Source: an uncultured delta proteobacterium (GTDB taxonomy: Bacteria; Desulfobacterota; Binatia; UBA9968). Taken from it: a DNA stretch of 64,000 bases. The DNA is taken from positions 128,001-192,000 of the forward strand of contig CAVUVW010000027.1 of NCBI GenBank assembly GCA_963745035.1, in the 5' to 3' direction. The position numbers were made by a program, and so were the translations under genes. This document shows positions 12,638 through 56,497 of the stretch, piece by piece. Below the pieces are notes generated by a model. It ran no database searches and was not told the DNA's origin. It saw only the letters and a program-made list of their open reading frames with translations. Positions within the stretch are counted from its first letter, which is position 1. Every line of letters starts with the position of its first letter.

Positions 12638-13468
12638 TGGGCTAATTTCGGGTGCTCAATCGGCAGATCCGTCCGGTCGCCCCATTCCTTCCACGATCCG
12701 ATGTAATTGCGCACTTTAGGAAAACCGAGCAGGCGCAGGGCGACGTAGCTATGCGCGGCGCGGTAGCCGCCTTGGCAGTAGGAGACGACTTCCTTGTCCG
12801 GCGTGATGCCGGCCTTGTCGTACATCGACTTTAGATCGGCTTTGCTCTTGAACTTTCCCTCGGCGTCGAGATTGTCGGTCCATTCGATGTGCACCGCGCC
12901 TGGTATCGCGCCGCCCCGCGCGGCCCGCACTTGGGTGCCGTAGTATTCGCCCGCGCTGCGCGTGTCGAGGATCGCGATGTCGTTTTTATTGAGTGAGCGA
13001 AGCACGTCGCCGGCGGTTGCCAAGACCTCACGGCGTTCGTTGACTTTGAAAGTGGAAGATTTGGGCGCGGTGGCTTCACGAGTCACCGGCGCGCCGGCAG
13101 CCTGCCAAGCTTTGAAGCCGCCGTCGAGCATCTTGACGTCAGGATGGCCGTAGTATTCCAAAAACCACAGGCCACGAGCCGCCCGCATGCCTGAGTTCTC
13201 TTCGTAGAAAACGACTTCTTTACTTTCGCTCACGCCGCGCAGCTCGAGCACGTGATGAATCATGAACATGAATGCTTTGAGCGGCGCTTCGCTAGTATCG
13301 ACAAGGCTCAGGCCGAAGAGATCGAAGTGTGTGGCGCCGGGAATATGGCCGCGCGCATAATCTTCGGCGGGCCTGACGTCGATGATGCAAAGATTCGGCG
13401 AGTCCGAGTTTGCTCTGCAGCTCGGTGACCGTTATGAGGAGAGTTTCGCGCGCGTATTGTTTTTCCAT
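12634..13468 (-). CDS. Tandem-domain sulfurtransferase (rhodanese/SseA), frameshift near 13404
   Basis: IIDVRPAEDYARGHIPGA, LDGG, YCQGGYRA active site, NYIGSWKEW; ATG at 13468 is out of frame by one base. Confidence 0.85.
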
Positions 13469-13506
13469 AGCGTCCCTATAGCATTAGTCAAAATGGCACT
13501 GCAATA

Positions 13507-14652
13507 ATGCGATCCAATCGTAAGCTCAAGATCATTTTACTTTGTGCATTCGTTTCCTTTTGTCAGACTCTTACCCTCTCCCGTCCTGGGAGAGGGGAGG
13601 GTGAGGGCCAGCGACTTGCATTGGGTTTTACCTACCAGCTCGCGCTTCCCGGACGTAAGCTCTCTTTTCCGGCGGATCATTATTCCCATCCCGATTTCAA
13701 AACCGAATGGTGGTACTACACCGGCCATTTAGAAACGGAGAGCGGCAAACGCTACGGCTATCAGGTTACTTTCTTTCGTTTCGGCGTGCGTGATCGACAG
13801 AAAGACTTGAAAGAAGAGCCGCTGTTCACGGAGCTCTACATGGCGCATTTCGCGCTTTCCGATATTGCCGCCAAGAAATTTCTCTATCGCGAGCGCCTCA
13901 ATCGCGGCTATGGCGACAAGGCGGGGGCAGCCACCGACCGTTATCTCGTTTGGAACGAAGACTGGAAGGTCGAAGGCGGCGAGAAGGATCATCGAATCGT
14001 GGTCAGCGACCGGGGCACGACTTTGAAGCTTTCGCTCCGATCGCTCAAGCCGCCAGTGCTGCACGGCGACAATGGGCACAGCCAAAAGGGCGAGGGCGAG
14101 GGAAGGGCATCGTATTACTATTCGCTGACGCGCATGCAAACCGAAGGCGAGCTGACCATCGGCGGCAGGAAGGAAAAAGTGCGCGGTCAGAGCTGGATGG
14201 ACCACGAATTCGGCAGCAATCAGCTCGCCGACAATCAAATCGGTTGGGACTGGTTCAGCATTCAGCTCGACAATCAAAACGAACTGATGCTCTACCTCAT
14301 GCGCCGAAAGGACGGCTCGGTCGATCTGCATTCCAGCGGCACGCTCGTGAGTGCCAACGGCGCGACCAAGCATCTCACCCTCAAAGATTTTCGCATCCAA
14401 GTGTTGGATCGTTGGAAGAGTCCCAAGAGCGGCGCCAATTATCCGATGAAGTGGAAAGTGTTTATTCCTGTTCAGGACATCGAGCTAGAGATTCTACCGG
14501 CATTTCCCGATCAGGAGCTGATCACCAACCGCAGCACCCGGGTGACGTACTGGGAAGGCGCGGTGCAAGTCCGTGGTAACTTTCAAGGGAAACCGATTGG
14601 CGGAAACGGATATGTTGAAATGACCGGATATGCAGGGAAGCTGACGCTCTGA
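13507..14652 (+). CDS. Secreted AttH/CrtC-like lipocalin-domain hydrolase
   Basis: FPADHYSHPDFKTEWWYYTG, SYYYS, WMDHEF, GWDWF, YWEG, GYVEMTGY. Confidence 0.85.
   Translation: MRSNRKLKIILLCAFVSFCQTLTLSRPGRGEGEGQRLALGFTYQLALPGRKLSFPADHYSHPDFKTEWWYYTGHLETESGKRYGYQVTFFRFGVRDRQKDLKEEPLFTELYMAHFALSDIAAKKFLYRERLNRGYGDKAGAATDRYLVWNEDWKVEGGEKDHRIVVSDRGTTLKLSLRSLKPPVLHGDNGHSQKGEGEGRASYYYSLTRMQTEGELTIGGRKEKVRGQSWMDHEFGSNQLADNQIGWDWFSIQLDNQNELMLYLMRRKDGSVDLHSSGTLVSANGATKHLTLKDFRIQVLDRWKSPKSGANYPMKWKVFIPVQDIELEILPAFPDQELITNRSTRVTYWEGAVQVRGNFQGKPIGGNGYVEMTGYAGKLTL
13574..13607. repeat. REP-like palindrome inside the CDS
   Basis: CCCTCTCCC-gtcct-GGGAGAGGG-GAGGGTGAGGG. Confidence 0.65.
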
Positions 14653-34903: not shown

Positions 34904-35794
34904 TTATGCCAATCCCATTAGCCGCGCTGGATTGATTGCGGCGACTTGATTCACCTCGCCCTGGCTCAAGCCCCCCTCGTGCAGCATGCCGAGGTACATG
35001 CGGAAGAGTTCTGCTGGGTTTGGGCTGTACGGGCGAAAGTAGTCGGTGCTGGCGATGATTTGCCGCAGGCCGACTTCGCGGAATTGTTTGACGAGCTCCG
35101 GCGAGTCCATCCGGCCCGGGGCCAGAGCGTTCCAACAGGCTTCGAGGAATGCGCCCATCTCGGCGGCGCGCTTCATCGCGTCCACGGGCATCGCGATGAT
35201 GTGGCTCTGCACGTGATTGACGACGATCCGGTGGCTGTAGCCCATGTCGCGCGCGGCTTTGATGAATTCCAAAGATTCCTGCCACGACACGTGGCCCATG
35301 CCGAGAGTGATATCGTTCGCTTTGCAGGCTTCGATGATTTCGTAGCCGCGCGGGATGAGCTTTCCTTTGTCGTCGAGGAAATAGTAATTGGGATTCTCCA
35401 GTTTGGCGTGGCTTTTATAGTACGACTTGATGCGGGCGCTGAAGCCTTTGCGCTCGACGTCGTTGCGCGCGCTCCAAGTCGGCAAAAAAACCATTTTGCC
35501 GCCGAGTTCGGCACAGGCTTCGATGATGCAGGGATTCGGCCCGCCCGCAGTGCTGTTGAGCGCGACGCTCGACCATAGCGCGACTTTGGTTTCCACCGAT
35601 GAAAGAATGTACGGCACGACGTTGACCGTCGGCCACCAGTGCGATTTCAGCACGACGCCGCGCATGCCCATCGCCTCGGCTTTGGGCAGCCAGAGAAACT
35701 CCGGCTCACGCTTGCGCTCTTTGGCGGAAAATTCGAAGTCGATATGGCAGTGGACATCGATCGCGCCTTGCATCATGTCGTCGTAAAGAGTCAT
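34904..35794 (-). CDS. Amidohydrolase-like metalloprotein (DUF6282-like)
   Basis: GAIDVHCH, GVVLKSH, GGPNP, GHVS, NH, STD. Confidence 0.7.
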   Translation of the reverse strand: MTLYDDMMQGAIDVHCHIDFEFSAKERKREPEFLWLPKAEAMGMRGVVLKSHWWPTVNVVPYILSSVETKVALWSSVALNSTAGGPNPCIIEACAELGGKMVFLPTWSARNDVERKGFSARIKSYYKSHAKLENPNYYFLDDKGKLIPRGYEIIEACKANDITLGMGHVSWQESLEFIKAARDMGYSHRIVVNHVQSHIIAMPVDAMKRAAEMGAFLEACWNALAPGRMDSPELVKQFREVGLRQIIASTDYFRPYSPNPAELFRMYLGMLHEGGLSQGEVNQVAAINPARLMGLA

Positions 35795-35811
35795 GTTGCC
35801 GCTCAAAGCAG

Positions 35812-35876
35812 GTGAGAAGTGAGGAGTAGAAGTTAGGAGCAAAGAGCGTCGGAGAATCACCTTACTCCTGACTCTT
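35812..35876. repeat. Degenerate 7-nt GTgAGgA repeats with an inverted CTnACTC arm
   Basis: GTGAGAA GTGAGGA GTAGAA GTTAGGA ... CTTACTC CTGACTC. Confidence 0.5.
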
Positions 35877-35895
35877 GTTGTTACACGTGTACTCG

Positions 35896-37188
35896 TCACG
35901 ACACGATTGTCAGACGCTCGGAGCGGGCGCCGCCGCAGCAGCGTTTATACTTCTTGCCGCTGCCGCAAGGGCAGGGATCGTTTCGTCCGGCTTGGCGGAC
36001 GGAAGCTTTTGCGTCCGCGGCGCGAACGATCTCCATCAACTTTTCGATCGGCTCGCCGGCCTCGACCAGCTCGGCGAATTTTTGAAAATACGGCTTGCTG
36101 TGGCCGAAGAATGACTTGAGGCCGGCGCAAAGATAGTTGAGCCCGTCTTCGCCGGACGGCGTCTTGATGATCCGGTCCTTGGGGCAGCCGCCGTTGCACA
36201 TGCTCAACACTTCGCACTCGCGGCAATACTTCGGCAGGCTGGTCCACTTGGCCTGGCCGAACTCGCGCTGCTTCGGATCTTCGACCATGTCCGCGAGCGG
36301 GCGATCGTGGATGTTGCCGATTTTGTACTCGGGCGTCACGTAATGATCGCAGGAATAGAAGTCGCCGTTGTGCTCGACCACCGGCACGTCGCCGCAGGTT
36401 TCGCGGTAAATGCACAGCGCGTGCTCCATGCCGAGAAACGGCCGCACCGATTCGTCGAAGAGTTGGATGAAAATCTTGCCGATATCGTGGCGCACCCATT
36501 CGTCGAAAATCGTGTTCAGAAATTTTCCATAGGCCGCGGCCGGCACCGAGCGCTTGTGGACGGGATTGGCCGGGTCGCCGGTTTTTTCGACCAGCGGCAG
36601 GAATTGCAAATACTGCCCGCCGATCTCCTTCAAGTAGCGATAGACTTGGGTCGGATATTTGACGTTGACGTCGTGGACGACGGTAAGCAGATCGACGTGC
36701 ACCTTGGCGCGCCGGAGCATGTGAAAAGCCTGGACGACTTGCTTGTGGGTCGGCTTCTGCCCCTTGGTGACGCGGTAGTGGTCGTGCAGCTCGCGCGGTC
36801 CGTCGAGGCTGAGGCCGATATAAAAATTTTCCTTGGCGAGAAACTCGCACCATTCGTCGTCGATGGTTGTGCCGTTGGTCTGAATGCCGTTGATGATTTT
36901 TTTGTCCGGCGGCAGATGCTTTTTCTGCAGCGCGACCGCCTTGCGGAAAAAATCGACGCCGAGCAAGGTCGGCTCGCCGCCGTGCCAGGAAAAGCTGACG
37001 GTTTCTCCGGGCGTCGCCTGGATATGCTGGATGATGTAGCGCTCGAGGGTTTCATCGTCGAGGCGGAAGTTGGTGCCCTTGGGATAGAGATTCTCTTTGT
37101 CGAGATAATAGCAATAGTGGCAATCGAGGTTGCAAATCGCCCCGATCGTCTTGACCATGATCTGAAACTCACGCGCCGCGGTTTCCAT
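35896..37188 (-). CDS. Anaerobic sulfatase maturase-type radical SAM/SPASM protein with C-terminal SEC-C motif
   Basis: CNLDCHYCYY, WHGGEPTL, QTNG, YSCDH, CNGGCPK, GRNDPCPCGSGKKYKRCC. Confidence 0.9.
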   Translation of the reverse strand: METAAREFQIMVKTIGAICNLDCHYCYYLDKENLYPKGTNFRLDDETLERYIIQHIQATPGETVSFSWHGGEPTLLGVDFFRKAVALQKKHLPPDKKIINGIQTNGTTIDDEWCEFLAKENFYIGLSLDGPRELHDHYRVTKGQKPTHKQVVQAFHMLRRAKVHVDLLTVVHDVNVKYPTQVYRYLKEIGGQYLQFLPLVEKTGDPANPVHKRSVPAAAYGKFLNTIFDEWVRHDIGKIFIQLFDESVRPFLGMEHALCIYRETCGDVPVVEHNGDFYSCDHYVTPEYKIGNIHDRPLADMVEDPKQREFGQAKWTSLPKYCRECEVLSMCNGGCPKDRIIKTPSGEDGLNYLCAGLKSFFGHSKPYFQKFAELVEAGEPIEKLMEIVRAADAKASVRQAGRNDPCPCGSGKKYKRCCGGARSERLTIVS

Positions 37189-37326
37189 GCTGAGGACTCT
37201 ACTCAAAAACGCCTGCGAAGTCACCACCCGCCGGGCCGTTTCGAACCCGAGGGTTCTCCCGGATAGTTGACAGATCGGCGGATTGCCATGAGAATTGCCA
37301 ATGGGCCACTCACACGACGTCAGTCC

Positions 37327-39096: not shown

Positions 39097-39167
39097 AGTT
39101 TACCAGGCTATTAAAACACATGACTCGCGAGTGTGCTTGTTGCCCTACCGCGGGCAGGAGGGAAGCG

Positions 39168-40509
39168 ATGATTCGGATCGTTCACATCGTCAACCAGTTT
39201 TTCGCCGGTATCGGTGGTGAAGACAAGGCCGGGGTAGGGGTTGGTGTGACCGCCGGGGCCGCAGGCGCAGCGCGCGGGCTCGAAGCGCAGCTTGGCGGCC
39301 GTGGCCAAGTCATCGCGACCATCCATTTCGGTGACAATTACTTTCACGAGCAAAAGCAAGAGGCGCTGGCGGCGATACTCGCCGAAGTGGAAAAGCAAAA
39401 AGCGGACGTGGTCGTTGTCGGTCCGGCCTTCAATGCCGGACGCTACGGGCTGGCTTGCGTGGAGATTTGCCAGGGTATCAGCGAACGCCTCGGCCTAGCA
39501 TGCGTGACGGGTATGGAGCCGGAGAATCCCGCCGTTAGTCTGTATCGAGATGCCCACAACGAGAAAGTGTTCCTGTTTCCAACCGCCGAGACGACGGCGG
39601 GAATGGCCAGTGCTTTGAAAGTTGTTACGCCGTTTGCCTGCCGTGTTGCCCTCGGTGAAAAGATCGGTACAGCGGACGCCGAAGGTTATGTAGCGCGCGG
39701 CATTCGCCGCCTGACCCAAGTGGATCGACCGGCGGTCGATCGCGCCATCGACATGCTGCTCGCCAAGGTTGCGGGCGAGCCGTTCCAAACTGAAGTGCCG
39801 ATGGAAGTCTGGGACAAGGTCGCGCCCGCTGCGCCGCTGCCCGATGCGGCTGCCGCCAATCTCGCAGTCATCTGCACAGGCGGCGTGGTGCCGTGGGGCA
39901 ATCCGGACGGGTTCAAAACCTACCGCAACACCTTCTGGCGCAAATACAATTTCGCCGAGCTGAAATCGCTCGACGTCGGGCAAGTGGGAAGCGGTGCACG
40001 GCGGCTACAACGTCGCCTTCATGAATCAGAATCCGCATTACGGCATGCCGCTCGACGCGCTGCGTTCGCTGGAAAGCGAAGGCAAGATCGGCGCCGGCAA
40101 ATTGTATCCCGCCTACTACGTCATCCCGGGCAATCAAGGCTCACCCGCAGTCATGCGCCGCGTCGGCCAGGAGATCGGCGCCGACTTGAAGAAAGAGGGG
40201 ATCGACGGCGTACTGCTCGTCGCCACGTGAGGAACCTGCAGTCGCAGCGGCGCTGTGATTAGCAAGGAACTCGATCGAGCAGGACTTCCAGTAGCGATGA
40301 TCAGCGCCATGTATCCGGTGGCGGAGCAGGTCGGCGCGAGCCGCATCGTCAAAGCAGTTGCCATTCCTCATCCGTGCGGTGATCCGAGTCTACCCGCGGA
40401 CCTCGACGGCCAATTACGCCGCGAAATCGTCGCGACGGCTCTCAAAGCTCTCGAACAAAAGGTGGATACGTCCACCGTCTTCGCGCCGAAGATCGCCGCG
40501 AGCGCATAG
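39168..40509 (+). CDS. grdB: Glycine/sarcosine/betaine reductase selenoprotein B family (Sec at UGA 40228-40230; +1 frameshift near 39980)
   Basis: NQFFAGIGGEDKA, GPAFNAGRYG, GGVVP.GNPD, HGGY, LVAT-U-GTCSRSGA, IPHPCGDP; ~446 aa after correction. Confidence 0.9.
40235..40267 (+). promoter_or_regulatory. Candidate bacterial SECIS hairpin
   Basis: cctgc-AGTCGCAGC-ggc-GCTGTGATT-a-gca-a-gg; G-initiated apical loop about 18 nt after the UGA. Confidence 0.7.
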
Positions 40510-40595: not shown

Positions 40596-41900
40596 ATGCG
40601 CCTTGAGTTAGCGGAGTTTCCCGTTACGAGCATCTCGATCGGCGAGCGGTTTCATTATGATTCCGCTGAGCTGACGGTGGACCGCGCCGCCATCGAGCAG
40701 GCAGTCTTGGCAGAAAAGCGCATCGAAGCGGCGTGGCTCGAAGTGGTCGCGCCCGGCGATCGAGTCAGGATCACCGGCATTCGCGACGTCGTCGAGCCGC
40801 GCGTGAAAGTGCGCGGCGGCGGACAAGTATTCCCCGGCGTGCTCGGACCAGTCGAGGCGGTTGGCGAAGGCTGCACGCACCGGCTCTCCGGCATGGCGGT
40901 GTTCGTCACGGCGGAATACGAGGGCACGGTACGCGCCGGTCTCGGCGTGCAGCGGAGCGCTATCCTCGACATGTGGGGCGAGGGCGCGGCTGCTTCACCG
41001 TTCAGCGCCTTGCGCGGCGTGGTGCTCAACTTACGATTGGCGCCGGGCCTTTCCGAATTGACCGCCCACGCGATCATCCAGCGCGCCGCTTTCGAGACGG
41101 CAAAAAAATTGGCGGAAACGACTGTCGGCCTGACTCCCGCGAAGACGGAGGTCTTCGAACTCGGCGGCGCAGCGCCGGAACTGCCCAAGGTGCTGCTGAT
41201 TCAGGGTTGCCTCACCGACAGCCCTAATCCGCACTCCGGCGTGAGCTACTTCGGCTTGCCGATCCGCGATTCACTGGCGACGGTGATTCATCCCAACGAA
41301 TTTCTCGACGGCGCTTTTGCGATGTACGCCACCCGGTGCATCGCGTATTTTCCGGTCACTTGGGATTGGCAGAATCATCCGCTTCTGCTCGGCCTGTACC
41401 GCGCCCATCGGCGCCAGGTGAATTTCCTCGGAGTCATTCTGGAGCGGATTCGCTACGACACGTTTCACGGCAAGGAAGTCATCGCGCACAACACCGCGCA
41501 GCTTGCCACGCAGCTCGGCGCGGAGGCGGCGCTGATTTCGTGGCTCGGTTCCGGAAACGCTTTCGTCGACGTGATGCTGACATTGCGCGCCTGTGAGCAG
41601 CGCGGCATCAAGACCAACTTGGTCACTTACGAGTACGGCGGCAAAGATGGAGTGGACTCGCCGCTGCTGTTTTATACCGGGGAAGCGGACGCGATCACCA
41701 GCACCGGCAGCCGCGATCGCTGGATCGACCTGCCGGAGGCCGAGAGAATCGTCGGCCCCTACGAAGAGATCAAAGTGCTCAGCTATCCCGGTGCGCCGCT
41801 GACGCCGGCGCGCGGGCGTTTTACTCTCGATGCGCGCGACATGATTCTCGGCGGGGTGGATTATTGGGGCAGAGGCAATTGGACGTGCGCCGCCTATTAA
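40596..41900 (+). CDS. Glycine/sarcosine/betaine reductase component B proprotein-like (GrdE/GrdI family), copy 1
   Basis: MRLEL, PGDRVRI..IRDVVEPRVKV, THRLSG, HPNEFLDGA, QNHP, GN..VD. Confidence 0.85.
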   Translation: MRLELAEFPVTSISIGERFHYDSAELTVDRAAIEQAVLAEKRIEAAWLEVVAPGDRVRITGIRDVVEPRVKVRGGGQVFPGVLGPVEAVGEGCTHRLSGMAVFVTAEYEGTVRAGLGVQRSAILDMWGEGAAASPFSALRGVVLNLRLAPGLSELTAHAIIQRAAFETAKKLAETTVGLTPAKTEVFELGGAAPELPKVLLIQGCLTDSPNPHSGVSYFGLPIRDSLATVIHPNEFLDGAFAMYATRCIAYFPVTWDWQNHPLLLGLYRAHRRQVNFLGVILERIRYDTFHGKEVIAHNTAQLATQLGAEAALISWLGSGNAFVDVMLTLRACEQRGIKTNLVTYEYGGKDGVDSPLLFYTGEADAITSTGSRDRWIDLPEAERIVGPYEEIKVLSYPGAPLTPARGRFTLDARDMILGGVDYWGRGNWTCAAY

Positions 41901-43107: not shown

Positions 43108-44415
43108 ATGCGACTCGAGATGGCAGAATTTCCGGTGCGCCGAATTCGACTCGGCGGCGCGTACCGTTATCAAGACGGCATTCTGGAAATTGACGGCGAC
43201 GATCTTGTCCGGCGGGTATTGGAAGATCCGCGTATCCGGATGGCCAAATTCGACGTCGTGACGCCGGGCGAGTCCGTGCGCGTTACCGGGATTCGCGATG
43301 TGGTCGAGCCGCGGGTCAAGCTCGGCGGAGCGGCGCAGGTGTTTCCCGGTGTGCTCGGTCCGGTGGCGGCGGTCGGCGGCGGGTTGACCCATCGTCTCTC
43401 CGGCATGGCGGTGCTCGCGACGGCTTCGTACGAGGGAACGGTGCGCGCCGGCACGGGCGTGCAGCGCAGTGCAATTCTCGACATGTGGGGGCGCGGCGCA
43501 GAAGCGTCGCGCTTCAGCTCGCTCATTCACCTTGTGCTGATTCTTGAGATAAACGAAGGTCTCGGTGAGCTCGAAGCGCACAGCGCGATTCAAACCGCCG
43601 AGTTCGAGGTCGCGCGAAAGCTCGCTGAAACGACGGCGGGCCTTGAACCGGCGCGAACGGTCCTCTACGACCTGAGCGACGGCGCCGAGCGGCGTCCCCG
43701 CGTGGTGCTGATTCAAGGCTGTATCACCCAGGCGCAGCAGCCCCATTCCGGCATCGGTTACTATGGCATGCCCATCCGCGAGTCGCTGCCGACGGCGATC
43801 CATCCCAACGAGTTGCTCGACGGTGCAGTCACGCCGAACACCACCCGAGGCATCGGCTATTATCCGACCAGTTGGGACTGGCAGAATCATCCGCTGGCGC
43901 TGGGGCTCTACCGCGAGCACGCCGCCGGCCGGCTGAGCTTCGGCGGCGTGATTCTGGAGCGCATCTCCTACGAAACCCATCAGGCCAAGGAAGTGGTGGC
44001 GCACAACGCGGCGCAGTTGGCGCGCAGCCTCGCCGCCGACGCGGCGCTGATCACCTGGACCGGCTCCGGCAATGCGTTCGTCGAGGTGATGCTGACGATT
44101 CGCGCCTGCGAGCGGTTGGGCATCAAAACCGTACTCGTCACCTACGAGTACGGCGGCAAGGACGGCGTCGATTCGCCGCTGCTCTTCTATGCCGAAGAAG
44201 CGAGCGCGGTGGTCAGCACCGGCAGCCGCGACCGCTGGATCGATCTCGCCGCGCCAGAAAAAGTCGTCGGGCCGTACGACGCCATCCGCGTCCTCAGCTA
44301 TCCGGGCGCGCCGTCCGCTCCGGCGCTCTCCGCTCTCACGCTTGACGCGCGCGATATGATCATCGGCGGCGTGGACAACTGGGGTGGCGGCGCCTGGACT
44401 TGCCGGGCTTTCTAA
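43108..44415 (+). CDS. GrdE/GrdI-like component B proprotein, copy 2
   Basis: Colinear paralogue of 40596-41900 (e.g. shared GVQRSAILDMWG, LVTYEYGGKDGVDSPLLFY). Confidence 0.85.
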   Translation: MRLEMAEFPVRRIRLGGAYRYQDGILEIDGDDLVRRVLEDPRIRMAKFDVVTPGESVRVTGIRDVVEPRVKLGGAAQVFPGVLGPVAAVGGGLTHRLSGMAVLATASYEGTVRAGTGVQRSAILDMWGRGAEASRFSSLIHLVLILEINEGLGELEAHSAIQTAEFEVARKLAETTAGLEPARTVLYDLSDGAERRPRVVLIQGCITQAQQPHSGIGYYGMPIRESLPTAIHPNELLDGAVTPNTTRGIGYYPTSWDWQNHPLALGLYREHAAGRLSFGGVILERISYETHQAKEVVAHNAAQLARSLAADAALITWTGSGNAFVEVMLTIRACERLGIKTVLVTYEYGGKDGVDSPLLFYAEEASAVVSTGSRDRWIDLAAPEKVVGPYDAIRVLSYPGAPSAPALSALTLDARDMIIGGVDNWGGGAWTCRAF

Positions 44416-44621
44416 GTTTCTCGACCCTTCCCGTCCGTGTGAAATCTTCGTGATCACCGCGCAGGCGGGCGATCCGAGCGGGATTTTTGTACCCGATTGT
44501 CTGCCTATGGCCTATAATAGCCGCGGCTCCGTAAGGTCGGCCAACTCTCTAAATTGTCATTTTCAACGACACCATCGGAGGATCGTTATCGATCCGCCGG
44601 GAGGCAACCGAGGAACTGATC

Positions 44622-47600
44622 ATGGCAAACAACATTCCGCTCAAGCTTCAAGGCACTCCGATTGCCGATCCCGGGTTGCCGGCCGCGCTGCGCGCGGCGA
44701 CGCGCGGCGCCGCCAAGGCGAGCGAATTCCTGCCGCCGGGCTATCTGAAGGTCGATGCGGCTTTCGATCTTAGCGCGCGCGCTCGGTCCACTCCCGGCGG
44801 CGCCGTGGAGAAAACGATCCAGGCTGGAGACAACCAGGTCGTCGTCCTTGAGATGGCCGACGGCGTCACCGTCATCACCAGCGCAAAAAAATTACAAGAG
44901 TCGCTGCGGCGCATCGATCCCGCCGCCATCGAAGCCGACGGCACGGCAAGATTAGCCGCCCTGCGCGAGCGCGGCGAGGCCAGCCGCGGCATCATCAGCG
45001 ACACCGTCGGCGATCTGGTATCGCGGGTATTCACGGTGACCGTCGGCGATAGCGCCGATCCGATTATCGATGCGGCGAAACGCAAGGCCGCCGAATGGCT
45101 GGGCGAGAAGGCCGAGGAGAAGATCCAGGCCTATTCCGAGCTCGGTGTCACCTGGCTCGGCACCAAGGCGCTCATGTGGGCGATCGAGAGCCGGCTGGAC
45201 CGCAAGCCCGGACTGTATCGCTGGCCGCGCGGCATGGGCGAGGCGGTAGACCTGTTGAACGTCGACGCCGACGCGCTGGCGGCGGACGCCAGGGAAGGGC
45301 CGCTGCTGATTTTTATTCACGGCACCGCATCGTCGAGTACGGGCAGCTTCGGCGATTTGCAGAAAGTCGGCCACGAAGACTGGCAGGCGCTCGAACGGAA
45401 GTTCGGCGACCGCATCTACGCCTTCGAGCATCTTACGTTCTCGCAAAGCCCGATCGAGAACGCCATCGAGCTCGCGGCCGCGCTGCCCGCGGGCGCGCAG
45501 GTGAACCTGGTGACCCACTCGCGCGGCGGCTTGATCGGCGATCTGCTCTGCCTGCGCAGCCCGGCCGATGAGCTGATCGAAAACTTCCGGTCCGATTTAC
45601 CGGAGCCGGGCGAGGTCTTGGAAGAGGAGCGCGAGCGCATCAAGAAAGAAACCGAGAACGCCCACGCCGAACAGCAAGGACAGCTCCGCGAGCTGCGCGC
45701 GCTGCTGCAACGAAAGCAGCTCGCCGTCCAACGCTACGTCCGCGTTGCCTGCCCGGCGCGCGGCACGCTCCTGGCTTCGGGCAATTTCGATATTTTTCTT
45801 TCCGCGCTGCTGACCGTGATCGGCCGGGTGCCTTACCTTTACGGCAATCCGATTTACTACGCGGTCAAGCGCATCGTGCTCGAGATCGTCAAAAACCGCA
45901 CCAATGCCAAGCTCGTGCCCGGCATCGAAGCGATGCTGCCCGAGTCTCCGATGGCGCGTTTTCTCGCCGAGGCTGCGCCGCAGGAATCAACCCGGATCGC
46001 GGTCATCGCCGGCGATATCGAAGGCGGCGGCCTGCTCAAGCGCTTGGGCGTGCTCTTCACCGACTACGCCTTTTTCAACGGCGTCGACAATGACCTGGTC
46101 GTCGATACCGACGCCATGTACGCCGGGATCGCACGGAAGGCCGGCGGGCGCGCGCTTTTCGACCAGGGCCCGACCACGTCGCACTTCAGTTATTTTCAAA
46201 ACGACGACACGCGCGCGGCGCTGCGCGATTGGCTGATCGCCGACGGCGTCGAGCAGTTGGCCACGTTCAAAGTTCTTCCTGGTGCGCGTCCCGAGCGCAG
46301 CTTAGCGGAAGAAAAGGCCCATGCGGCCGAGTTGCGGCGCAGCCGCGGCGGCGAAGCAGCCGAGGCGATCTTGCCCGTGGCGGTCGTCCTCCCGGGCATC
46401 ATGGGCTCCCATCTCTGGCGCAACGAAAGCGAGCGGGTGTGGTACCGCGTTGCCGGCTTGGTGGTCGGCGGCCTCAGAAATCTCGCATGGGGCGAGCGCA
46501 CGGGCAGCGAGAGCGGCGACGGGATCACGGCGGAAAAGCTTTTCGACGATTCCTACGGCGACCTGTGCGATCATCTCATGGAAACCCACCGTGTCGAACG
46601 CTTTCCTTACGATTGGCGCTTGCCGCTCGACATCCTCGCCGATCGCCTGGAGAGATTTTTGCGGCGGCTCTTCGAGGAAACCAAAAATCCGCAGCGGCCC
46701 ATTCGCATCCTCGCTCACAGCATGGGCGGCCTGGTGGCGCGCGCGCTGATTCACAAGCTCGCCCAGCGCCAAGACAATCTGTGGGACGATCTCATGGGCC
46801 GCGACGGCGCGCGCTTTATCATGCTCGGCACGCCCAACCAGGGTGCGCACTCGATGGTCGAGGCGCTGATCGGCAAGTCGGATACGCTGCGCAGTCTCGC
46901 CCGCATCGACGTGAGAAACGACCTGCAGAGCATTCTCGACATCATCGGTGAATTCCGCGGCGCGCTGCAGCTCCTGCCGAAGCCCGGATTTGCCGACGTC
47001 GGCGACGCCCAGTTCGACGATTATTTCACCGCTGGCGCGCTGGAGCGCGTTCAAAGAAGAGATGAAGGATTTCTGGTTCGGCGACAAGGTCGCGGCGGTG
47101 CCGACCGCCGCCGCGCTCAGCCAAGCCAAATGGCTGTGGGAGCGCGACGGCGTGCTGCCGCCGGCGCTGCCGGAGCGCCATAAAGACAAGACCATCTACG
47201 TCCACGGCTGCGCGCCGACGACCGCCTGCGGCATCAAGAAAATCGACGGCCGCTGGAAAATGGTCGGCACCGTTCGAAGGCGACGGCACGGTCACCTGGA
47301 AGTCGGGCGCGATAGACGGCATCGGCCGGCGCTATTACATGCCCGCGGTGCACGGCGATCTCGCCGCCGCCGAGGAGTATTTCACCGCCTTGGACGAACT
47401 GCTGCGCACCGGCGCCACCGGCGCGTTGATGGATCGACCGCCGGAAACGCGCGACGCCGAGGCGGCAGAACCGCGAGCGTATGAAGCAGGACCGCCGCGC
47501 TACCCCATGCCCGAAGAAGCGGCACACGCGCTGACCGGCGTGCCCAAGCGCAAGCGTCTCGCCGAGCGCGCGGTGCCGACCTTGAAGGTCGCGGTGAAGG

Positions 47601-50600
47601 CGATGGATCTGCGCTTCGTCAACCAGCCGATCATGGTCGGCCACTACGAACAGGACGCAATCTCGGGCGCCGAGTCGATCATCGACCGCGAGCTGGTCGA
47701 TAACGCGCTGAGCGAGCGCTACAACCTGGGACTTTACGCCGGTCCGGTCGGCACCGCGGTGGTCGTGCTGCGTCTGCCCAACGAAGCGGAGCGACTGCGC
47801 GGCAGCTCCTACGGCGCGGTGGTGACCGGCCTGGGCACCTACGACGGCACACTGGCGGCCAACCGGCTCACCGAGGCGGTGCGCACCGGCGCGCTGCGCT
47901 ACCTGCTCCAGTATTTCGATTGCAGCGGCGTGGGCTCTGGAGAGATCGGCCTCAGCACCCTGCTGCTGGGCTACAATTCCAGCGCCAATCTGACCATTCA
48001 AGCTTCCGTCGAGGCGCTGGTGCGCGGCGTGGTGGAGGCCAATCGCAAGTTTGCCGACGCCACCCGGCAGACTCTGCACATCGGCTCGCTGGAGATCATC
48101 GAGCTTTATCTCGATACCGCGATCTCGGCGATGCGCTACTTGCGCGCTTTCGCCGAGAAGTCCAACGGCGAGGCGCGCGGCCTGGGCGTTCGCTTGGAGA
48201 TTCCCGAGGAACTGGAACAAGACCGGAGCGTGCGGCCGAGATTGGACGATAGCCGCGCGGTCGGCCATTGGCCGCGCATGATCATCACCGACGCGGACCG
48301 TAATGAAGAAGAATGCCCGCCGGAGTGCTATGAGCGCCTTTTCCCGCCTGAGAGCTACGACGAGGGTGAGCGCGAGGATGAAAACGCGGGCGGCGAAACC
48401 AAAACGCCGGCGCGGCTGCGGCGGCGAACCGCGCTCGCCGAGCGCTTGAAATTCGTCCACGTCGGCCAGCGCGCGCGCGCCGAGACCATCGTGCAGCAGC
48501 GCCAACCCGGATTGGTGGAAAAGCTCATTGCCCAACAGATTCTGGAAAAAAACTATCGCCCGGATTTCAGCCGGACGTTGTTTCAATTGATGGTGCCCCA
48601 TGAATTCAAAGACGCCTCGCGCCAGCTCGATCGCATCGTGCTGGTGGTGGACGGATACACTGCGAATTTGCCTTGGGAGCTGATGCTGGCCGAGGACGAA
48701 CCGCTCGCGGTGCGCTCGCCGATGATCCGCCAGCTGGTGTCGAGCAAGTTTCGCCGGCAGGTGCGCCAATCGCTGCAGCCGCTCGCCTACGTGATCGGCA
48801 ATCCCTCGACCGCGAACTTTTATCGAAGCTTTCCTTCGCCGGACCGCAGGCCGTCCGAAGGATTGGTTTCGCTCGCCGGCGCCCAGGAGGAGGCCGAAGT
48901 GGTGGTCGAATCCTTGCGCCGCTACGGCTACGAGGTGGAGCAGTCGATCGGCGCGGAATATGATGCGCTCAAAGTCATCAACCCGCTGTATCAAAAACCT
49001 TATCGCATCGTGCACATCGCCGCGCACGGCGTCTTCGACGAGCGCGCGGCGGACGGCAAGAGCCGCAGCGGCGTGGTGCTCGCCGACGGGCTGCTGCTGA
49101 CCGCCGCGGAGATCGGCCAGATGGAGATCGTGCCCGATCTGGTGTTTCTCAACTGCTGCCACCTCGCCAAGGTGGACGCCCAGCCGGTCGCCTACAACCG
49201 CCTGGCCTACAGCATCTCGCGGGAACTGATCGAGATCGGCGTGCGCTGCGTGGTCGCTGCCGGGTGGGCGGTGGACGACGATGCCGCCTACACGTTCGCC
49301 GACGTGTTCTACCAAGGAATTCTCCACGAAAAACTCCAGTTCGGCGACGCCGTGTTCGCCGCGCGCAGGGAAACCTATCGCAAGCACGGCGGCAGCGTCA
49401 CCTGGGGAGCCTATCAAGCCTACGGCGACGCCGGTTGGCGCATCGACCCGCGCGAAGGCTCGGGGCGCCGGGGGCGCGGCAGCGCCGACTTTGTTTCGCC
49501 GGAGGAATTGATCGACGGCATGAGGGGAATTCGCACCGGCATCTTCCAACGGCGCGAGGCCCTGACCAAGCCGGCGGCGCGCAGCACCGCAGCGCAGCTC
49601 CAAGTGCTATTGCGCCGCGGTCCAAAGAACTGGCTCGACGATCCGGCGGTCAGCTTCGAACTGGCGGAAACCTACGCGTCGCTCGGCGCGGAATTTTTCG
49701 AGGAGGCCTGCAAACTGTACAACGTCGCGATCGCCGCCGAGGACAGGGCGCACCGCGTGCCCATCACCGCCATCGAGCAGCTCGCCAATATTGAATCAAA
49801 GCTCGGCGAAGAGATGGGCGCGCCGGATTTGATCGACCGTGCCATCGAGCGGCTTTATGATCTGGACAAAGTCGTCGCCGGGACCGTCGATTACGGCTCC
49901 GGCCGGCGCATCGAAGCAGCCGCATCGAAGGCCAACATCGAGCGCCAGTCGCTCGCTGGCAGCGCTTACAAGAGAAAAGCCGCCATCTTCGCGCGCCAGA
50001 TTCTCGATCCGCGTACGCCGGATCGGCAGGAGTCGATCAAAAAGTTCGAAGAGGCGATCGGACAGAGCATCGAGGCCTACAGAAATGCCTCGGGAGCCGA
50101 GAACGAGGCGCGTTTCGATCCGTATCCGGCGCTCAACTGGCTCGCGCTCCGGGCGCTCGACGGCGCCTACGACCAAGGTGTCGCCGTTTGCGTGCTGTGC
50201 GGCAAGAAGGCCACCGAAAAGTTCATGCGCGCCGCCAATGTTTGGAATGCCGTGATGGCCGCCGAAGCCTATCTGGTCCAAACGCTATGCGACGGCAGCC
50301 TGGGCCGACCGCGCGACGCGGGCGATCAAGCTCTCGAGGAAGTTTGGCGGCGCTACCGCGATGCCTTTGCCAACGTCCGCTTTGCGCCGAAGGACCTCGA
50401 CGCGGTGACTTTACAGCTCTGTCTGCTGGCGCTGTTTTTCGAAGCGAAAAGCGCGACCGGCACACAGGCCGCGCGCAGCAGAGCCCACGGCGCGGCGGCG
50501 CATCGCCTGCGCCGGCTCGCCGAACGAATCCAGCCGGGAAGCTGCGAGGATCCGACGCCGCCGGCGCGAGTGGAAACGGCGCGGGAGACCCTGCCCGAGC

Positions 50601-50641
50601 CGGCGGCTCCCCGGCGGCGGGCAAGGCGACGGCGACGGTAG
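44622..50641 (+). CDS. ~2005-aa protein: two alpha/beta-hydrolase (lipase-like) domains + CHAT caspase-like domain + TPR-like C-terminus; +1 frameshifts near 47035 and 47275
   Basis: IHGT/THSRGG; LPGIMGS/YDWR/AHSMGG/LGTP/GDGTV/HGDL; HIAAHG and FLNCC; LAGSAYKR, YPALNW. Confidence 0.8.
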
Positions 50642-50710
50642 CCGCGACAGCGCCGCACGGTTGCGTCGGCAGCGACGCTCCTTTATGGTCGCGGATCATA
50701 GAACGTGGCG

Positions 50711-51442
50711 ATGTCAGAAAAAGCGAAACAGATCATTCCCATCGGCGGCGGCGGGTTTTATCGCGACCCGGAGAACCTCGCGCTGGAAAAATATGTGATT
50801 GCCCAGACCGGCGCGCAAAATGCGCGCGTCGCCTTCGTGCCGACGGCGAGCGGCGAGCCGGACCATTACGTCGCGAGCTTCTACGCGGCGTTTCTGAAGC
50901 TCGGCTGCCGGCCGTCGGTGCTGACGTTTTTCAAGCGTACCCCCGATCTGCGCTCATTTTTGCTGAACCAGGATGTGATCTACGTCGGCGGCGGCAACAC
51001 CAAGAGTCTTCTCGCCGTGTGGCGCGATTGGGGCGTGGATAAGATTCTGCGCGAGGCGTGGGAGTCCGGCATCGTGCTCACCGGCGTGAGCGCGGGGGCG
51101 ATCTGCTGGTTTGCGCAGGGGGTGACGGATTCGTTTGCCGACGGCCTTTGCCCGCTCGACTGCCTGGGCTTTTTACCGGGGAGCTGCTGCCCGCACTACG
51201 ACGGCGAGCCGCAGCGTCGGCCGTCCTATCACGGACTGCTCGGCTCCGGCGCAATCGCCGCGGGCGTCGCCATCGAAGACTGGACCGGCGTTCACTTCAA
51301 GGGCGCGGAAATCCATAAGGTCGTGAGCTCCAAGCGCGGCGCTCGGGCCTACAGCATGCGCGCCGCGCACGGCTCGGTGCAGGAAGTCGCGCTGCCGAGC
51401 GAGTTTCTCGATGCCGCCGCGGCGGAGAATCGAGCCGACTAA
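50711..51442 (+). CDS. Peptidase E (S51) family
   Basis: FVPTASG, YVGGGNT, GVSAGAICW, CPHYD. Confidence 0.88.
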   Translation: MSEKAKQIIPIGGGGFYRDPENLALEKYVIAQTGAQNARVAFVPTASGEPDHYVASFYAAFLKLGCRPSVLTFFKRTPDLRSFLLNQDVIYVGGGNTKSLLAVWRDWGVDKILREAWESGIVLTGVSAGAICWFAQGVTDSFADGLCPLDCLGFLPGSCCPHYDGEPQRRPSYHGLLGSGAIAAGVAIEDWTGVHFKGAEIHKVVSSKRGARAYSMRAAHGSVQEVALPSEFLDAAAAENRAD

Positions 51443-51463
51443 CGGGATCGAGGCGGGCGTGCA

Positions 51464-51922
51464 ATGGCGACGCTAAAAAAGCGCAAGAGAATGCCGATCG
51501 TCGGCGCGGTGATGACTTCTTTTCCCTATTTTGTCGACGTCGAGGAAACCGCGACGAATATGGAGCGCATGATGGATGAGCACGCCATTCGTCATCTGCC
51601 GGTGCAGGACAAGGGCGCGGTCGTGGGTATCGTCTCGGAGCGCGATCTGCACCACCATGTCAAGCGCGAAGCGCCCAAAACGGAAAAGGATAAAATTCTC
51701 GCCCGGCAGATCATGATTCCCGATCCTTACATCGTGCCATTTCGCGCGCCGCTCAACGAAGTGGTTTTCGAAATGTCGCGGCGGCGCATCGGCTCTGTGC
51801 TCGTGCAGCGCGAGGGCAAGCTGGCGGGAATTCTCTCCGCCATGGACGTCTGCCGCGTGTTCGGCGAATACCTGGAATCGATGTTTCCGGGCGGCAAGCG
51901 CGGCGGCGATTCCGCGGCATAG
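51464..51922 (+). CDS. CBS domain pair protein
   Basis: IRHLPV...VGIVSERD; IGSVLV...GILSAMD. Confidence 0.85.
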   Translation: MATLKKRKRMPIVGAVMTSFPYFVDVEETATNMERMMDEHAIRHLPVQDKGAVVGIVSERDLHHHVKREAPKTEKDKILARQIMIPDPYIVPFRAPLNEVVFEMSRRRIGSVLVQREGKLAGILSAMDVCRVFGEYLESMFPGGKRGGDSAA

Positions 51923-54930: not shown

Positions 54931-55430
54931 GTACCCCAGCGCCGTTCGATCCGCTGCTGCGCTTCGCTGAGATCGAGCGGCTGGTCGCGAAAATCTACTA
55001 TCGCTTTTCGCATCTCTTTCTCTCCCGTCCCGAGCTGCGCGATTTTTGGTGGGAGATGGCGCGGGAAGAGGAGCAGCACGCCAGCATTCTGGGCGCATGC
55101 CGGGAGCTTATCGTCAATTACCAAGACGAATCTCTCGATCCCATGATCAGCAGCGAGAACGCCGACAATCTTACCGAGAGGCTTCAATCGTTTCTTAGCC
55201 GCGGTACGCCGGCGCTCGGTATCGAGGAGGCCTTCAAAATTGCGCTCGACATCGAGTGTTCCGAGATCGACGTCATATACGGCAAGTTGCTGCAGCTGGG
55301 CGGCCCGCAGATCGGCAAGACGATGGAAAACCTGGGCGTTCCCGCAGCTGTACAGAGGCAAAAACTCAAGGCCGCGCTGCGCCGCTTTTGTTCCGATCCG
55401 GAACTGCTGCGGGCCGCCGAGCTGTTCTGA
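54927..55430 (+). CDS. Ferritin-like protein
   Basis: IERLVAKIY, MAREEEQH, IECSEID; ATGA overlap with the upstream gene. Confidence 0.65.
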   Translation: MSTPAPFDPLLRFAEIERLVAKIYYRFSHLFLSRPELRDFWWEMAREEEQHASILGACRELIVNYQDESLDPMISSENADNLTERLQSFLSRGTPALGIEEAFKIALDIECSEIDVIYGKLLQLGGPQIGKTMENLGVPAAVQRQKLKAALRRFCSDPELLRAAELF

Positions 55431-55455
55431 GCCGCAATTCTCCAGTTCGATCGTC

Positions 55456-55484
55456 TTGACACATTCACCACGCGCTTCTATCTT
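55456..55484 (+). promoter_or_regulatory. sigma70-type promoter of the activator gene
   Basis: TTGACA-N17-TATCTT. Confidence 0.55.
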
Positions 55485-55551
55485 GCCGATTGCCTTGGTG
55501 AGGTACTTCAGCGAAGCGCAGTGCGATACACCCCGGTTGAGCCGGCGAAAC

Positions 55552-56497
55552 ATGGAATTTCACCTGAACAACATCATCGGTAAGAGCAAGGTGATCCGCG
55601 ACGTTTTAGATCTGGTCAAGAAGGTCGCCAATACCCAAGCGACCGTTCTGATCACCGGGGGCAGCGGCACGGGCAAGGAATTGATCGCCCTGGCGCTCCA
55701 CGCGCTCAGCGATCGCCGCGATAAGGTTTTCCTGCCGGTCAACTGCGGCGCACTTCCGGAAACCCTGCTCGAAAGCCTCCTCTTCGGGCATATGAAAGGT
55801 TCTTTCACCGGCGCCTTCGCGAATCAGGAAGGCTTGTTCGAAAGAGCCAAGGCAGGTACTATTTTTCTCGACGAGATCGGAGAAATTCCGCAGCATCTGC
55901 AGGTCAAATTGCTCAGAGCTTTGGAGGCAAAGGAGATTCTCCCGATCGGCAGCACGACGCCGCGCCGGATCGATGTCCGGGTGTTGGCGGCGACCAACCG
56001 AAATCTAAAAAACGAAGTAGAAGCCGGACGATTTCGCGAAGATCTGTACTACCGTCTCAACATCATGGAGATTCATATTCCGCCCCTAAGCGAGCGTCCG
56101 GAAGACATTCCGCTGCTGGTCGATCATTTCATCAAGCGGCACAACCCGGAACTCAAAAGAAACTTTCAGGGCATCGAGGAGGACGCCGTGCGCGTCCTGA
56201 TGTCGCTTCCGTGGAAGGGCAACGTGCGCGAACTCGATAATATCATCGAGCACACTATGATTCTCGCCGAAGGAGAGCGCATCACCTTGAAGGATCTGCC
56301 GAGCTCGATCATGTGCCAGCAGTCAGGCCCATCCCGCCTTCACCTTCAACCTCAAAGACGCGCTGCGGGAATTTGAAAAACAGCACATCTTGCGCGCTCT
56401 CGAACAGGCGAAACACGACCGAAAGGAAGCCGCCAAGCTCCTGGATATCAGTCTATCGTCGCTTTACCGGAAGATCGAAGAGCTGGATATCGACTAG
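55552..56497 (+). CDS. sigma54 enhancer-binding protein (AAA+ and Fis HTH only), frameshift near 56330
   Basis: GGSGTGKE, ESLLFGH.KGSFTGA, FLDEIGE, FREDLYYRL, WKGNVREL; HTH AAKLLDISLSSLYRK in the +1 frame. Confidence 0.88.

Follow-up and report, generated by a model that had tools for sequence, protein, structure and literature searches.

Introduction

Bound to cyclic triadenylate (cA3), SAVED-CHAT specifically cleaves and thereby activates the C14 protease 'PCaspase', as described in the accessible part of the report (10.1101/2023.06.23.546230). For the Thoeris systems, the accessible part of a further preprint describes a Macro domain that senses histidine-ADP-ribose (His-ADPR) in type II, a tetratricopeptide repeat (TPR) in ThsI that is proposed to sense cyclic ADP-ribose (cADPR) and had earlier been predicted to be part of TIR signalling, and 29 putative effector types including phospholipases and hydrolases (10.64898/2025.12.03.692087). 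In conflict systems, caspase-superfamily domains are always accompanied by an alpha/beta-hydrolase gene, according to the accessible text of PMC7159879. Here we report on a giant gene at positions 44622-50641 (+) of a 64,000-nucleotide stretch of DNA from an uncultured delta proteobacterium (assembly GCA_963745035.1, contig CAVUVW010000027.1, positions 128,001 to 192,000), which is called the window in the following and whose numbering is used throughout. We show that it is one gene, belonging to a large and conserved family that is uncharacterised. We see a somewhat better than even chance that it encodes a latent cell-death or immune effector, in which a ligand-gated CHAT protease would fire a C14 caspase and the fused phospholipases, and that the frameshifts interrupting it are assembly errors rather than lesions.

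Gene structure

A list of open reading frames (ORFs) contains three ORFs on the forward strand at this locus: ORF 1 at 44622-47183 (frame 1), ORF 2 at 46948-47484 (frame 2) and ORF 3 at 47339-50641 (frame 3). The original prediction had joined these ORFs, each offset by +1, into one chain of about 2005 amino acids (aa), and this has been borne out. In a tblastn comparison the best match, an intact homologue of 2010 aa (P0003), follows the three frames in order: its residues 1-805 align in frame 1, residues 806-886 in frame 2 and residues 887-2010 in frame 3. The identity is 81-84%, and neither join has lost a residue. Because P0003 is colinear over the three frames, the joins are real and each break corresponds to one extra base. 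The first extra base is located near 47031 (+; ACC[G]CTG), where the tblastn match in frame 1 ends at 47030 and that in frame 2 begins at 47032. The second is located near 47275 (+; GTT[C]GAA), where the homologue reads KM(I/V)GTV up to the join and EGDGTVTW after it. When both bases are skipped (44622-47030, 47032-47274 and 47276-50638) the translation comprises 803+81+1121 = 2005 aa. The two extra bases are 244 nucleotides (nt) apart and both lie within the second hydrolase domain, between the serine and the aspartate and histidine of its triad.

Each of the three ORFs has a start codon, as would be expected if they were three genuinely separate genes, an outcome that had been named beforehand as one that would speak against the prediction. 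Three separate genes would, however, cut the second hydrolase in three, leaving the serine in ORF 1 and the aspartate and histidine in ORF 3; moreover, the homologue is colinear and gapless at the joins, and the frame is continuous in the 48 single-frame loci of relatives and in at least 510 proteins of 1960-2110 aa. We regard separate genes as practically impossible.

The region directly upstream of the giant gene (44500-44621, +) contains, by inspection, a TATAAT sequence at 44513-44518 and the sequence GAGGA 6-7 nt before the ATG. A promoter scan of 44300-51600 predicted nothing upstream of the ATG at 44622.

Domain architecture

By profile matches and structural models the domains are, in order, an N-terminal domain, a DUF7379 lipase-like hydrolase, an LCAT/LPLA2-like phospholipase, a macro fold, a disordered linker, a CHAT protease and a TPR-S tail. 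The N-terminal half was modelled from the intact protein of a congener (L004, first 1000 aa), which is 76% identical to the window over these 1000 aa. This model has a predicted local distance difference test score (pLDDT) of 84 and a predicted template modelling score (pTM) of 0.81. The C-terminal 1119 aa were modelled from the window protein itself (pLDDT 77), and fold matches were obtained with VIA and Foldseek.

The N-terminal domain (aa 1-228; 44622-45305, +) is conserved in the family, with a majority fraction of 0.58 over 61 homologues. It was modelled with good confidence and appears packed on the hydrolases. No Pfam family matched it at E<=0.1, and the fold searches barely reached the first 233 residues of L004.

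The first hydrolase, a DUF7379 lipase-like alpha/beta hydrolase, is encoded at 45306-46300 (+) with the motif THSRGG at 45513-45530. The match to DUF7379 (PF24096) reaches 111.5 bits against a cut-off of 33 (E 6.3e-32). In 63 sequences H309, S310, G312 and G313 of the HSRGG motif are invariant, as are D501 (DNDLVVD) and H531 (SHF). In fold searches the corresponding part of the model (L004 residues 234-554) resembled Legionella PlaB (Z 18.9, 242 residues aligned) and T1 lipase (Z 16.4, 262/387 aligned).

The second hydrolase, of the LCAT/LPLA2 phospholipase type, is encoded at 46390-47430 (+) with AHSMGG at 46713-46730, GDGTV at 47279-47293 and HGDL at 47351-47362. The Pfam families LCAT, DUF676 and PGAP1 all match here (2.4e-9), LCAT (PF02450) with 37.4 bits against a cut-off of 21, and the serine, aspartate and histidine of AHSMGG, GDG and HGD are conserved in about 60 homologues. 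The model of this part (L004 residues 593-938) is closest to lysosomal phospholipase A2 (4x97_A; Z 27.2, root-mean-square deviation (rmsd) 3.4, 311/377 aligned), followed by LCAT (Z 24.9) and Tle4, a lipase of the type VI secretion system (T6SS) (Z 20.9, 305 aligned). A sequence search of the PDB with the N-terminal half gave only a marginal match to LCAT (E 0.01). By profile, triad and modelled fold the second hydrolase is assigned to the LCAT/LPLA2 family, and a lipase activity is predicted for it.

In the model of the C-terminal piece there are three folded parts with low-confidence linkers between them, namely residues 98-300, residues 326-725 with CHAT and residues 739-1083 with the TPR repeats. 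The first of these parts (47573-48181, +; pLDDT mostly 84-96) matched macro domains. VIA placed it near macroH2A1.1 (1zr3_A; Z 15.6, rmsd 3.0, 169/186), the N-domain of leucine aminopeptidase (8pz0; Z 15.4) and the macro domain of Venezuelan equine encephalitis virus with ADP-ribose (3gqo_A; Z 15.0, rmsd 2.6, 154/161), and Foldseek added YmdB, MacroD2 and the macro domain of chikungunya virus with template modelling scores of 0.60-0.71 normalised to the target. The glycine-rich loops are invariant in the family. At the level of sequence the support for a macro-like domain is thin: the Peptidase_M17_N profile matches it in three of 33 family members, and a shorter relative at 1e-7, and a sequence search of the PDB found nothing for the C-terminal piece or for the macro profile. 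By its model the region before CHAT has a macro fold, and ADP-ribose binding is putative.

Between the macro fold and CHAT follows an acidic linker (48242-48511, +) with a pLDDT below 50 over most of residues 321-406, a candidate cleavage region. Nowhere else in the family is conservation so low or are gaps so frequent (majority fraction 0.45, 22% gaps). The CHAT caspase-like protease itself is encoded at 48512-49447 (+), with HIAAHG at 49013-49030 and FLNCCH at 49145-49162. It matches CHAT (PF12770, clan CD) with 110.8 bits against a cut-off of 24 (E 1.1e-31). Across 62 sequences there is no variation at H578, H582, C625, C626 and H627, of which H582 is part of HIAAHG and C625 and C626 are part of FLNCCH. 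The fold matches found by VIA were separase (5fby_A, Z 21.1), SAVED-CHAT (8tl0_C; Z 18.1, rmsd 2.4, 180 aligned) and Csx29 (7y9x_B, Z 18.1); Foldseek likewise found Csx29 (8eey_B, 4.5e-5).

The protein ends with a helical repeat tail of the TPR-S type, a predicted sensor (49496-50530, +), followed as far as the stop at 50641 by a C-terminus that is basic and disordered. TPR-S (PF20308) matches residues 806-956 of the C-terminal piece with 43.2 bits against a cut-off of 27.6 (E 6.4e-11). The tail is modelled as all-helical with a pLDDT mostly above 85, and its fold matches are generic (ASK1, Z 18.0; LGN, Z 16.6). It is the most variable folded part of the family (majority fraction 0.52), and the enzymatic domains are the best conserved parts (0.69-0.72).

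The original prediction had suggested that domain and structure prediction be carried out, and these recovered every part that it had claimed from its motifs: two serine hydrolases, a CHAT His-Cys dyad and a helical TPR-like tail. All the motifs that it had quoted (THSRGG, AHSMGG, GDGTV, HGDL, HIAAHG and FLNCC) are present. The catalytic residues, dead versions of which it had named as speaking against its view, are kept across about 60 homologues. It had overlooked the domain with a macro fold that separates the second hydrolase from CHAT, and also the caspase partner gene present in most relatives.

Distribution of the family

The same four Pfam domains are shared by at least 510 proteins of 1960-2110 aa in a search limited to longer proteins, and 1501 cluster representatives match the family at E<=1e-30. 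Where these relatives are named they are labelled 'CHAT domain-containing protein', pimeloyl-ACP methyl ester carboxylesterase / triacylglycerol lipase or 'hypothetical protein', and none of the pieces of the giant protein matches an NCBIfam family. In the literature that was searched, most subscription journals and the bioRxiv supplements lying outside it, DUF7379 or PF24096 is not named; among the papers listed, 'TPR-S' is absent and none joins 'macro domain' with 'CHAT domain', and the titles listed by broader searches include none on the lipase-macro-CHAT-TPR-S build.

The family is scattered across phyla and patchy within the genus. An ortholog of the giant gene is present in five of 24 same-genus genomes (one of the five, G005, is flagged unpublished), in four of them as a single frame of about 2000 aa and in the fifth split at contig ends. 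Four same-genus genomes carry a 38% identical paralogue with the same domains, TPR-S included. In addition there are stand-alone proteins of 960-1013 aa (P0165, P0189 and P0214) whose start lies immediately ahead of the macro-like domain. They have CHAT but no lipase domain; TPR-S is found in P0189 and P0214. Because such stand-alone macro-like-CHAT-TPR-S proteins exist, the sensor-protease core can be regarded as a separable module.

Origin of the frameshifts

We considered two explanations for the extra bases at 47031 and 47275. First, they could be consensus errors of the assembly; second, both 1-nt insertions could be real and the gene a recent pseudogene, from which only an 853-aa N-terminal product, or none, would be made. 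Contigs from four other public runs were compared with the window over 46500-47800; runs X1 and X10 are without cover at both sites. At the first site a single base, at 47032, is missing from the sole covering contig, which comes from run X5 (record 20; 489 nt, 5 mismatches). The second site is covered by two contigs only, one from X5 (record 23) and one from X9 (record 29), and in both of them a single base is missing at 47270. All three contig pieces over the two insertion sites are thus without the extra base; they are near-identical to the window and 1-4% divergent from it. These contigs are close relatives from other samples and not proof of an assembly error.

Further observations speak for errors in the consensus. 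Copies in several frames occur in six of 54 loci of relatives, and these breaks are confined to one type of assembly (6/12 in assemblies of one naming style, 0/42 elsewhere). A ModC-like ABC ATPase elsewhere in the same genome is likewise split by a frameshift: on contig C8 of the source genome (G000) the ORFs 55158-55628 and 55201-56229 (L072 4158-4628 and 4201-5229) overlap, the first containing positions 10-100 of ABC_tran and the next positions 106-137 plus TOBE. Within the 6 kb of the giant gene there is no further lesion and no in-frame stop inside any of the three segments, all of which have kept 81-84% identity to the homologue, which speaks against a pseudogene.

The pseudogene explanation, on the other hand, is favoured by five long housekeeping ORFs (950, 954, 900, 557 and 1375 aa) that are unbroken in the same assembly, so that indels are not rampant in it. 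Both indels are clustered within 244 nt of one accessory gene, and the patchy occurrence in the genus is as for a dispensable, possibly costly gene. The origin of the insertion-free contigs from other samples, with sequences not identical to the window, also weakens the argument for an error. Because near-identical metagenome contigs are without both insertions, we consider an assembly error the likelier of the two and hold it to be the probable cause of both breaks, and a recent pseudogene has a considerable chance of being the true explanation, if one short of even. The copy in the window is an ordinary, possibly mis-assembled, member of its family. For annotation of the window this means that the 'three ORFs' are one gene and that its breaks are probably assembly errors.

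A genome-wide, reference-free count of same-strand frame switches by GC content at third codon positions (GC3) was discarded, as it missed the focal gene, which served as positive control, and gave higher rates at control loci.

The Peptidase_C14 partner gene

A gene for a Peptidase_C14 caspase of about 280 aa is situated directly upstream of the giant gene, on the same strand and 14-598 nt away, in 29 of 45 loci; these 45 are the loci with at least 1 kb of upstream DNA among the 54 loci of relatives. Cultured carriers include a Cyanobium isolate (L049) with C14 and giant gene together, and Variovorax and Albitalea isolates (L030 and L046) whose copy is without C14. His85 and Cys138 of this partner are invariant in 25 sequences. 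The source genome of the window holds exactly one C14 gene, on another contig (contig C8 58337-59149; L072 7337-8149). Along its entire length it shares 45-50% identity with the upstream C14 partners of the relatives, and it is the orthologue of the partner gene in other phyla. It sits between a gene for an NMT1 binding protein and a gene of the endonuclease/exonuclease/phosphatase family. The product of the latter (382 aa) might be a further effector.

Among same-genus genomes the C14 orthologue was found in six of nine that have the giant gene or its 38% paralogue as against three of 15 that have neither, the kin in this comparison not being independent of each other. In another congener the gene for a hydrolase-M17_N-CHAT protein of 1126 aa is likewise immediately preceded by a C14 gene. 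The giant gene had been put forward originally as a candidate single-gene system. It is correct that one chain unites sensor, protease and hydrolases, but the status of a lone gene does not hold for the family in view of the C14 gene upstream in relatives and its unlinked orthologue in the source genome.

Genomic neighbourhood

The neighbours in the window are metabolic by their Pfam matches, in agreement with the earlier statement that the gene stands among unrelated genes. Upstream there are B subunits of glycine reductase and an NMT1 binding protein, downstream a Peptidase_S51, a CBS and a GAPDH gene. Two paralogues of the glycine/sarcosine/betaine reductase component B flank the NMT1-type binding protein (39120-40262, 40596-41900 and 43108-44415). 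The GRDB selenoprotein-B-like ORF at 39120-40262 (+) covers only positions 2-267 of the 347 positions of the profile and may run on through an in-frame TGA (selenocysteine). Farther upstream a DUF6282 protein (34904-35899, -) adjoins a protein of the radical SAM/SPASM type whose C-terminus bears a SEC-C motif (35896-37227, -).

In four loci of relatives (L020 at 13349-14056, L031, L032 and L034) a gene for a cell-wall hydrolase with LysM and Peptidase_M15_4 is located directly downstream of the giant gene. In three others a membrane protein of the TIR_2-CHASE2 type is encoded just upstream, together with a FecR-domain protein (L033, 3969-6023 and 6020-7153; also L037 and L039). The latter loci belong to Ideonella-like genomes, and the C14 gene intervenes in L037 and L039.

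In the source genome 10 genes exceed the Pfam cut-off for TIR_2, all of them elsewhere than in the window. TIR_2 is found in 40 of 47 whole genomes of relatives, a count that is not attributable to the giant-gene loci.

Proposed mechanism

We propose that the macro domain, the TPR-S tail or both would sense a ligand, most likely an ADP-ribose-derived signal from the TIR-type enzymes of which the genome has about ten. From its modelled fold the macro domain is a second candidate sensor beside TPR-S. Sensing of the ligand would turn on the CHAT protease, which would cut the C14 procaspase as SAVED-CHAT does with PCaspase and would probably also cut the disordered linkers of the giant protein itself, with cut sites predicted for residues 56-95 and 321-410 of the C-terminal piece. 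The outcome would be promiscuous proteolysis together with an attack of the two phospholipases on the cell's own membrane, by which the infection would be aborted. The co-occurrence of sensor, protease and membrane-damaging effector in one chain, as stated by the original prediction, stands as far as TPR-S, CHAT and the two lipase-like hydrolases are concerned; their effect on membranes is predicted only. In its most complete form the proposal would be a two-tier caspase cascade with a built-in membrane executioner and with scattered genes: macro or TPR-S would read a diffusible ADP-ribose-type alarm from unlinked TIR proteins, and CHAT would activate C14 and free the phospholipases. This elaborated version is speculative, and we think it rather unlikely to be right in all its parts.

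Several observations weigh against a role in immunity and against the partners named. The defence scan with PADLOC comprised 106 neighbour ORFs of 18 of the 54 loci, three ORFs on each side. CRISPR genes were found in only two of the 18 loci (Cas6 in one, Cas3 with Cas5c in another) and a BrxH/SngC-like helicase in one. TIR ORFs are present within the fetched flanks in only seven of the 54 loci, and no TIR ORF was found in the whole window with a local hidden Markov model, which was built from nine TIR_2 domains and may let divergent TIRs escape. Co-occurrence with defence islands, a check that had been suggested along with the original prediction, thus gave weak linkage. The eight closest loci are syntenic and metabolic, with Peptidase_S51 downstream in nine of nine including the window. 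One of these nine syntenic loci, L011 (in G041, flagged unpublished), enters the neighbour, C14, TIR and PADLOC counts. The C14 gene is unlinked in the source genome, and in three of the nine congeners with the giant gene or paralogue no C14 orthologue was found. No Pfam Macro family matches the macro-fold domain, and by sequence this domain is linked instead to the N-domain of the aminopeptidase, a domain that does not bind ADP-ribose. Two PADLOC matches were not counted as defence: the 'IetA' match beside L020, which is FtsH by Pfam, and a pVip match in L017, which is a weak radical-SAM match.

This context might suggest that the giant protein is not concerned with immunity at all and instead regulates housekeeping or development. 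It would then be a phospholipase under the control of a protease, serving to remodel membranes, to lyse cells under stress or to bring about programmed death in bacteria with a social or soil lifestyle. The stable metabolic synteny in the clade of the window, the scarcity of known defence genes close by and the LysM-Peptidase_M15 cell-wall hydrolase downstream in four loci are consistent with such a function, and Kaur et al. link caspase/hydrolase pairs to multicellular bacteria in the accessible part of their paper (PMC7159879). Against it stand the patchy occurrence in the genus and the scatter across phyla, which are typical of accessory conflict genes, the variable sensor tail and the TIR and CRISPR neighbours of some loci. 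Furthermore, all those prokaryotic CHAT and C14 proteases that have been studied and are mentioned in the accessible parts of the cited work act in defence. On balance a housekeeping role appears unlikely to us.

The resemblance of the second hydrolase to the T6SS effector Tle4 raises another alternative, namely an exported interbacterial toxin consisting of a Tle-like lipase effector with a processing protease. However, LPLA2 and LCAT outscore Tle4, there is no obvious signal peptide at the translated N-terminus as judged by eye, no secretion-system or immunity gene was found among the neighbours scanned, and the lipases are fused to a macro, CHAT and TPR core of the cytoplasmic type. An exported toxin is therefore most improbable.

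If the proposed mechanism of a ligand-gated CHAT protease firing C14 and the phospholipases is true, the family would be an abundant example of lipase-coupled caspase-type cascades in bacterial cell death. It would join the activation of a caspase by CHAT, ADP-ribose-type signalling via macro or TPR sensors and the destruction of membranes, which have hitherto been studied apart. The C14 and the putative TIR partner genes can be unlinked, and discovery pipelines based on operons would overlook such systems. The present analysis has added the macro fold, the conserved C14 partner and the unlinked C14 orthologue in the source genome.

Comparison with known systems

The SAVED-CHAT/PCaspase system combines a sensor-fused CHAT with a stand-alone Peptidase_C14, and the same combination is present in most relatives of the giant gene; the CHAT fold agrees as well. 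By Pfam, the giant protein has no SAVED family, the macro fold and TPR-S being the candidate sensors in its place, and two phospholipase-like domains are fused to it. The giant gene shows no linkage to CRISPR or to a CD-NTase, and sigma factor, inhibitor or kinase genes, as belong to SAVED-CHAT/PCaspase, were not seen. In that system C14 is part of the cluster of the CHAT gene, an arrangement met in the loci of relatives with an upstream C14 gene, whereas C14 is unlinked in the genome of the window.

Csx29, the TPR-CHAT protein of the type III-E Craspase, likewise has TPR and CHAT in one chain. The TPR is C-terminal to CHAT in the giant protein but N-terminal in Csx29, and the macro and lipase modules are additional. 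No Cas7-11 or Csx30/31 genes were found among the neighbours scanned. No gasdermin model matched among the 106 neighbour ORFs of 18 of the 54 loci, with three ORFs scanned on each side, nor, by Pfam, among the neighbours in the window. Borvo (BovA) resembles the giant gene in being a lone CHAT gene proposed for defence. The architecture is different, and the PADLOC match, a weak one at 16.5 bits (E 8e-4), is confined to the CHAT core, where residues 536-695 correspond to positions 509-663 of the 711 positions of the profile.

The second hydrolase shares its fold over nearly the whole chain with lysosomal phospholipase A2, LCAT and Tle4, including the AHSxG nucleophile elbow, at 17-18% identity. 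Unlike these enzymes it is predicted to be cytoplasmic and is part of a multidomain protein.

In the MoxR-vWA (VMAP) ternary conflict systems a caspase-superfamily peptidase and an alpha/beta hydrolase recur together and are predicted to act jointly, as far as the accessible text of PMC7159879 goes. The giant protein shows the same coupling, with peptidase and hydrolase fused in one chain, but MoxR, vWA and VMAP are not among the Pfam or PADLOC matches of the neighbours.

For Thoeris the accessible parts of two reports (10.64898/2025.12.03.692087, 10.1101/2024.10.24.620036) describe ThsI of type VIII, in which a CMP hydrolase is combined with a TPR and cADPR is the proposed signal, the Macro effector of type II and, in ThsE of type IV, a caspase-like protease as executioner. 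The fusion of a sensor to a killing enzyme is found likewise in the giant protein, for which a caspase-like executioner is also proposed. The TPR-S tail is a putative counterpart of the TPR of ThsI. In contrast to Thoeris, the giant gene has no TIR gene next to it, either in the window or in most relatives, and the giant protein would act through a protease and lipases instead of a CMP hydrolase, a pore or SIR2. The likeness to Thoeris extends to the TIR genes, which are present in some of the giant-gene loci and, in the source genome, as the TIR_2 genes outside the window.

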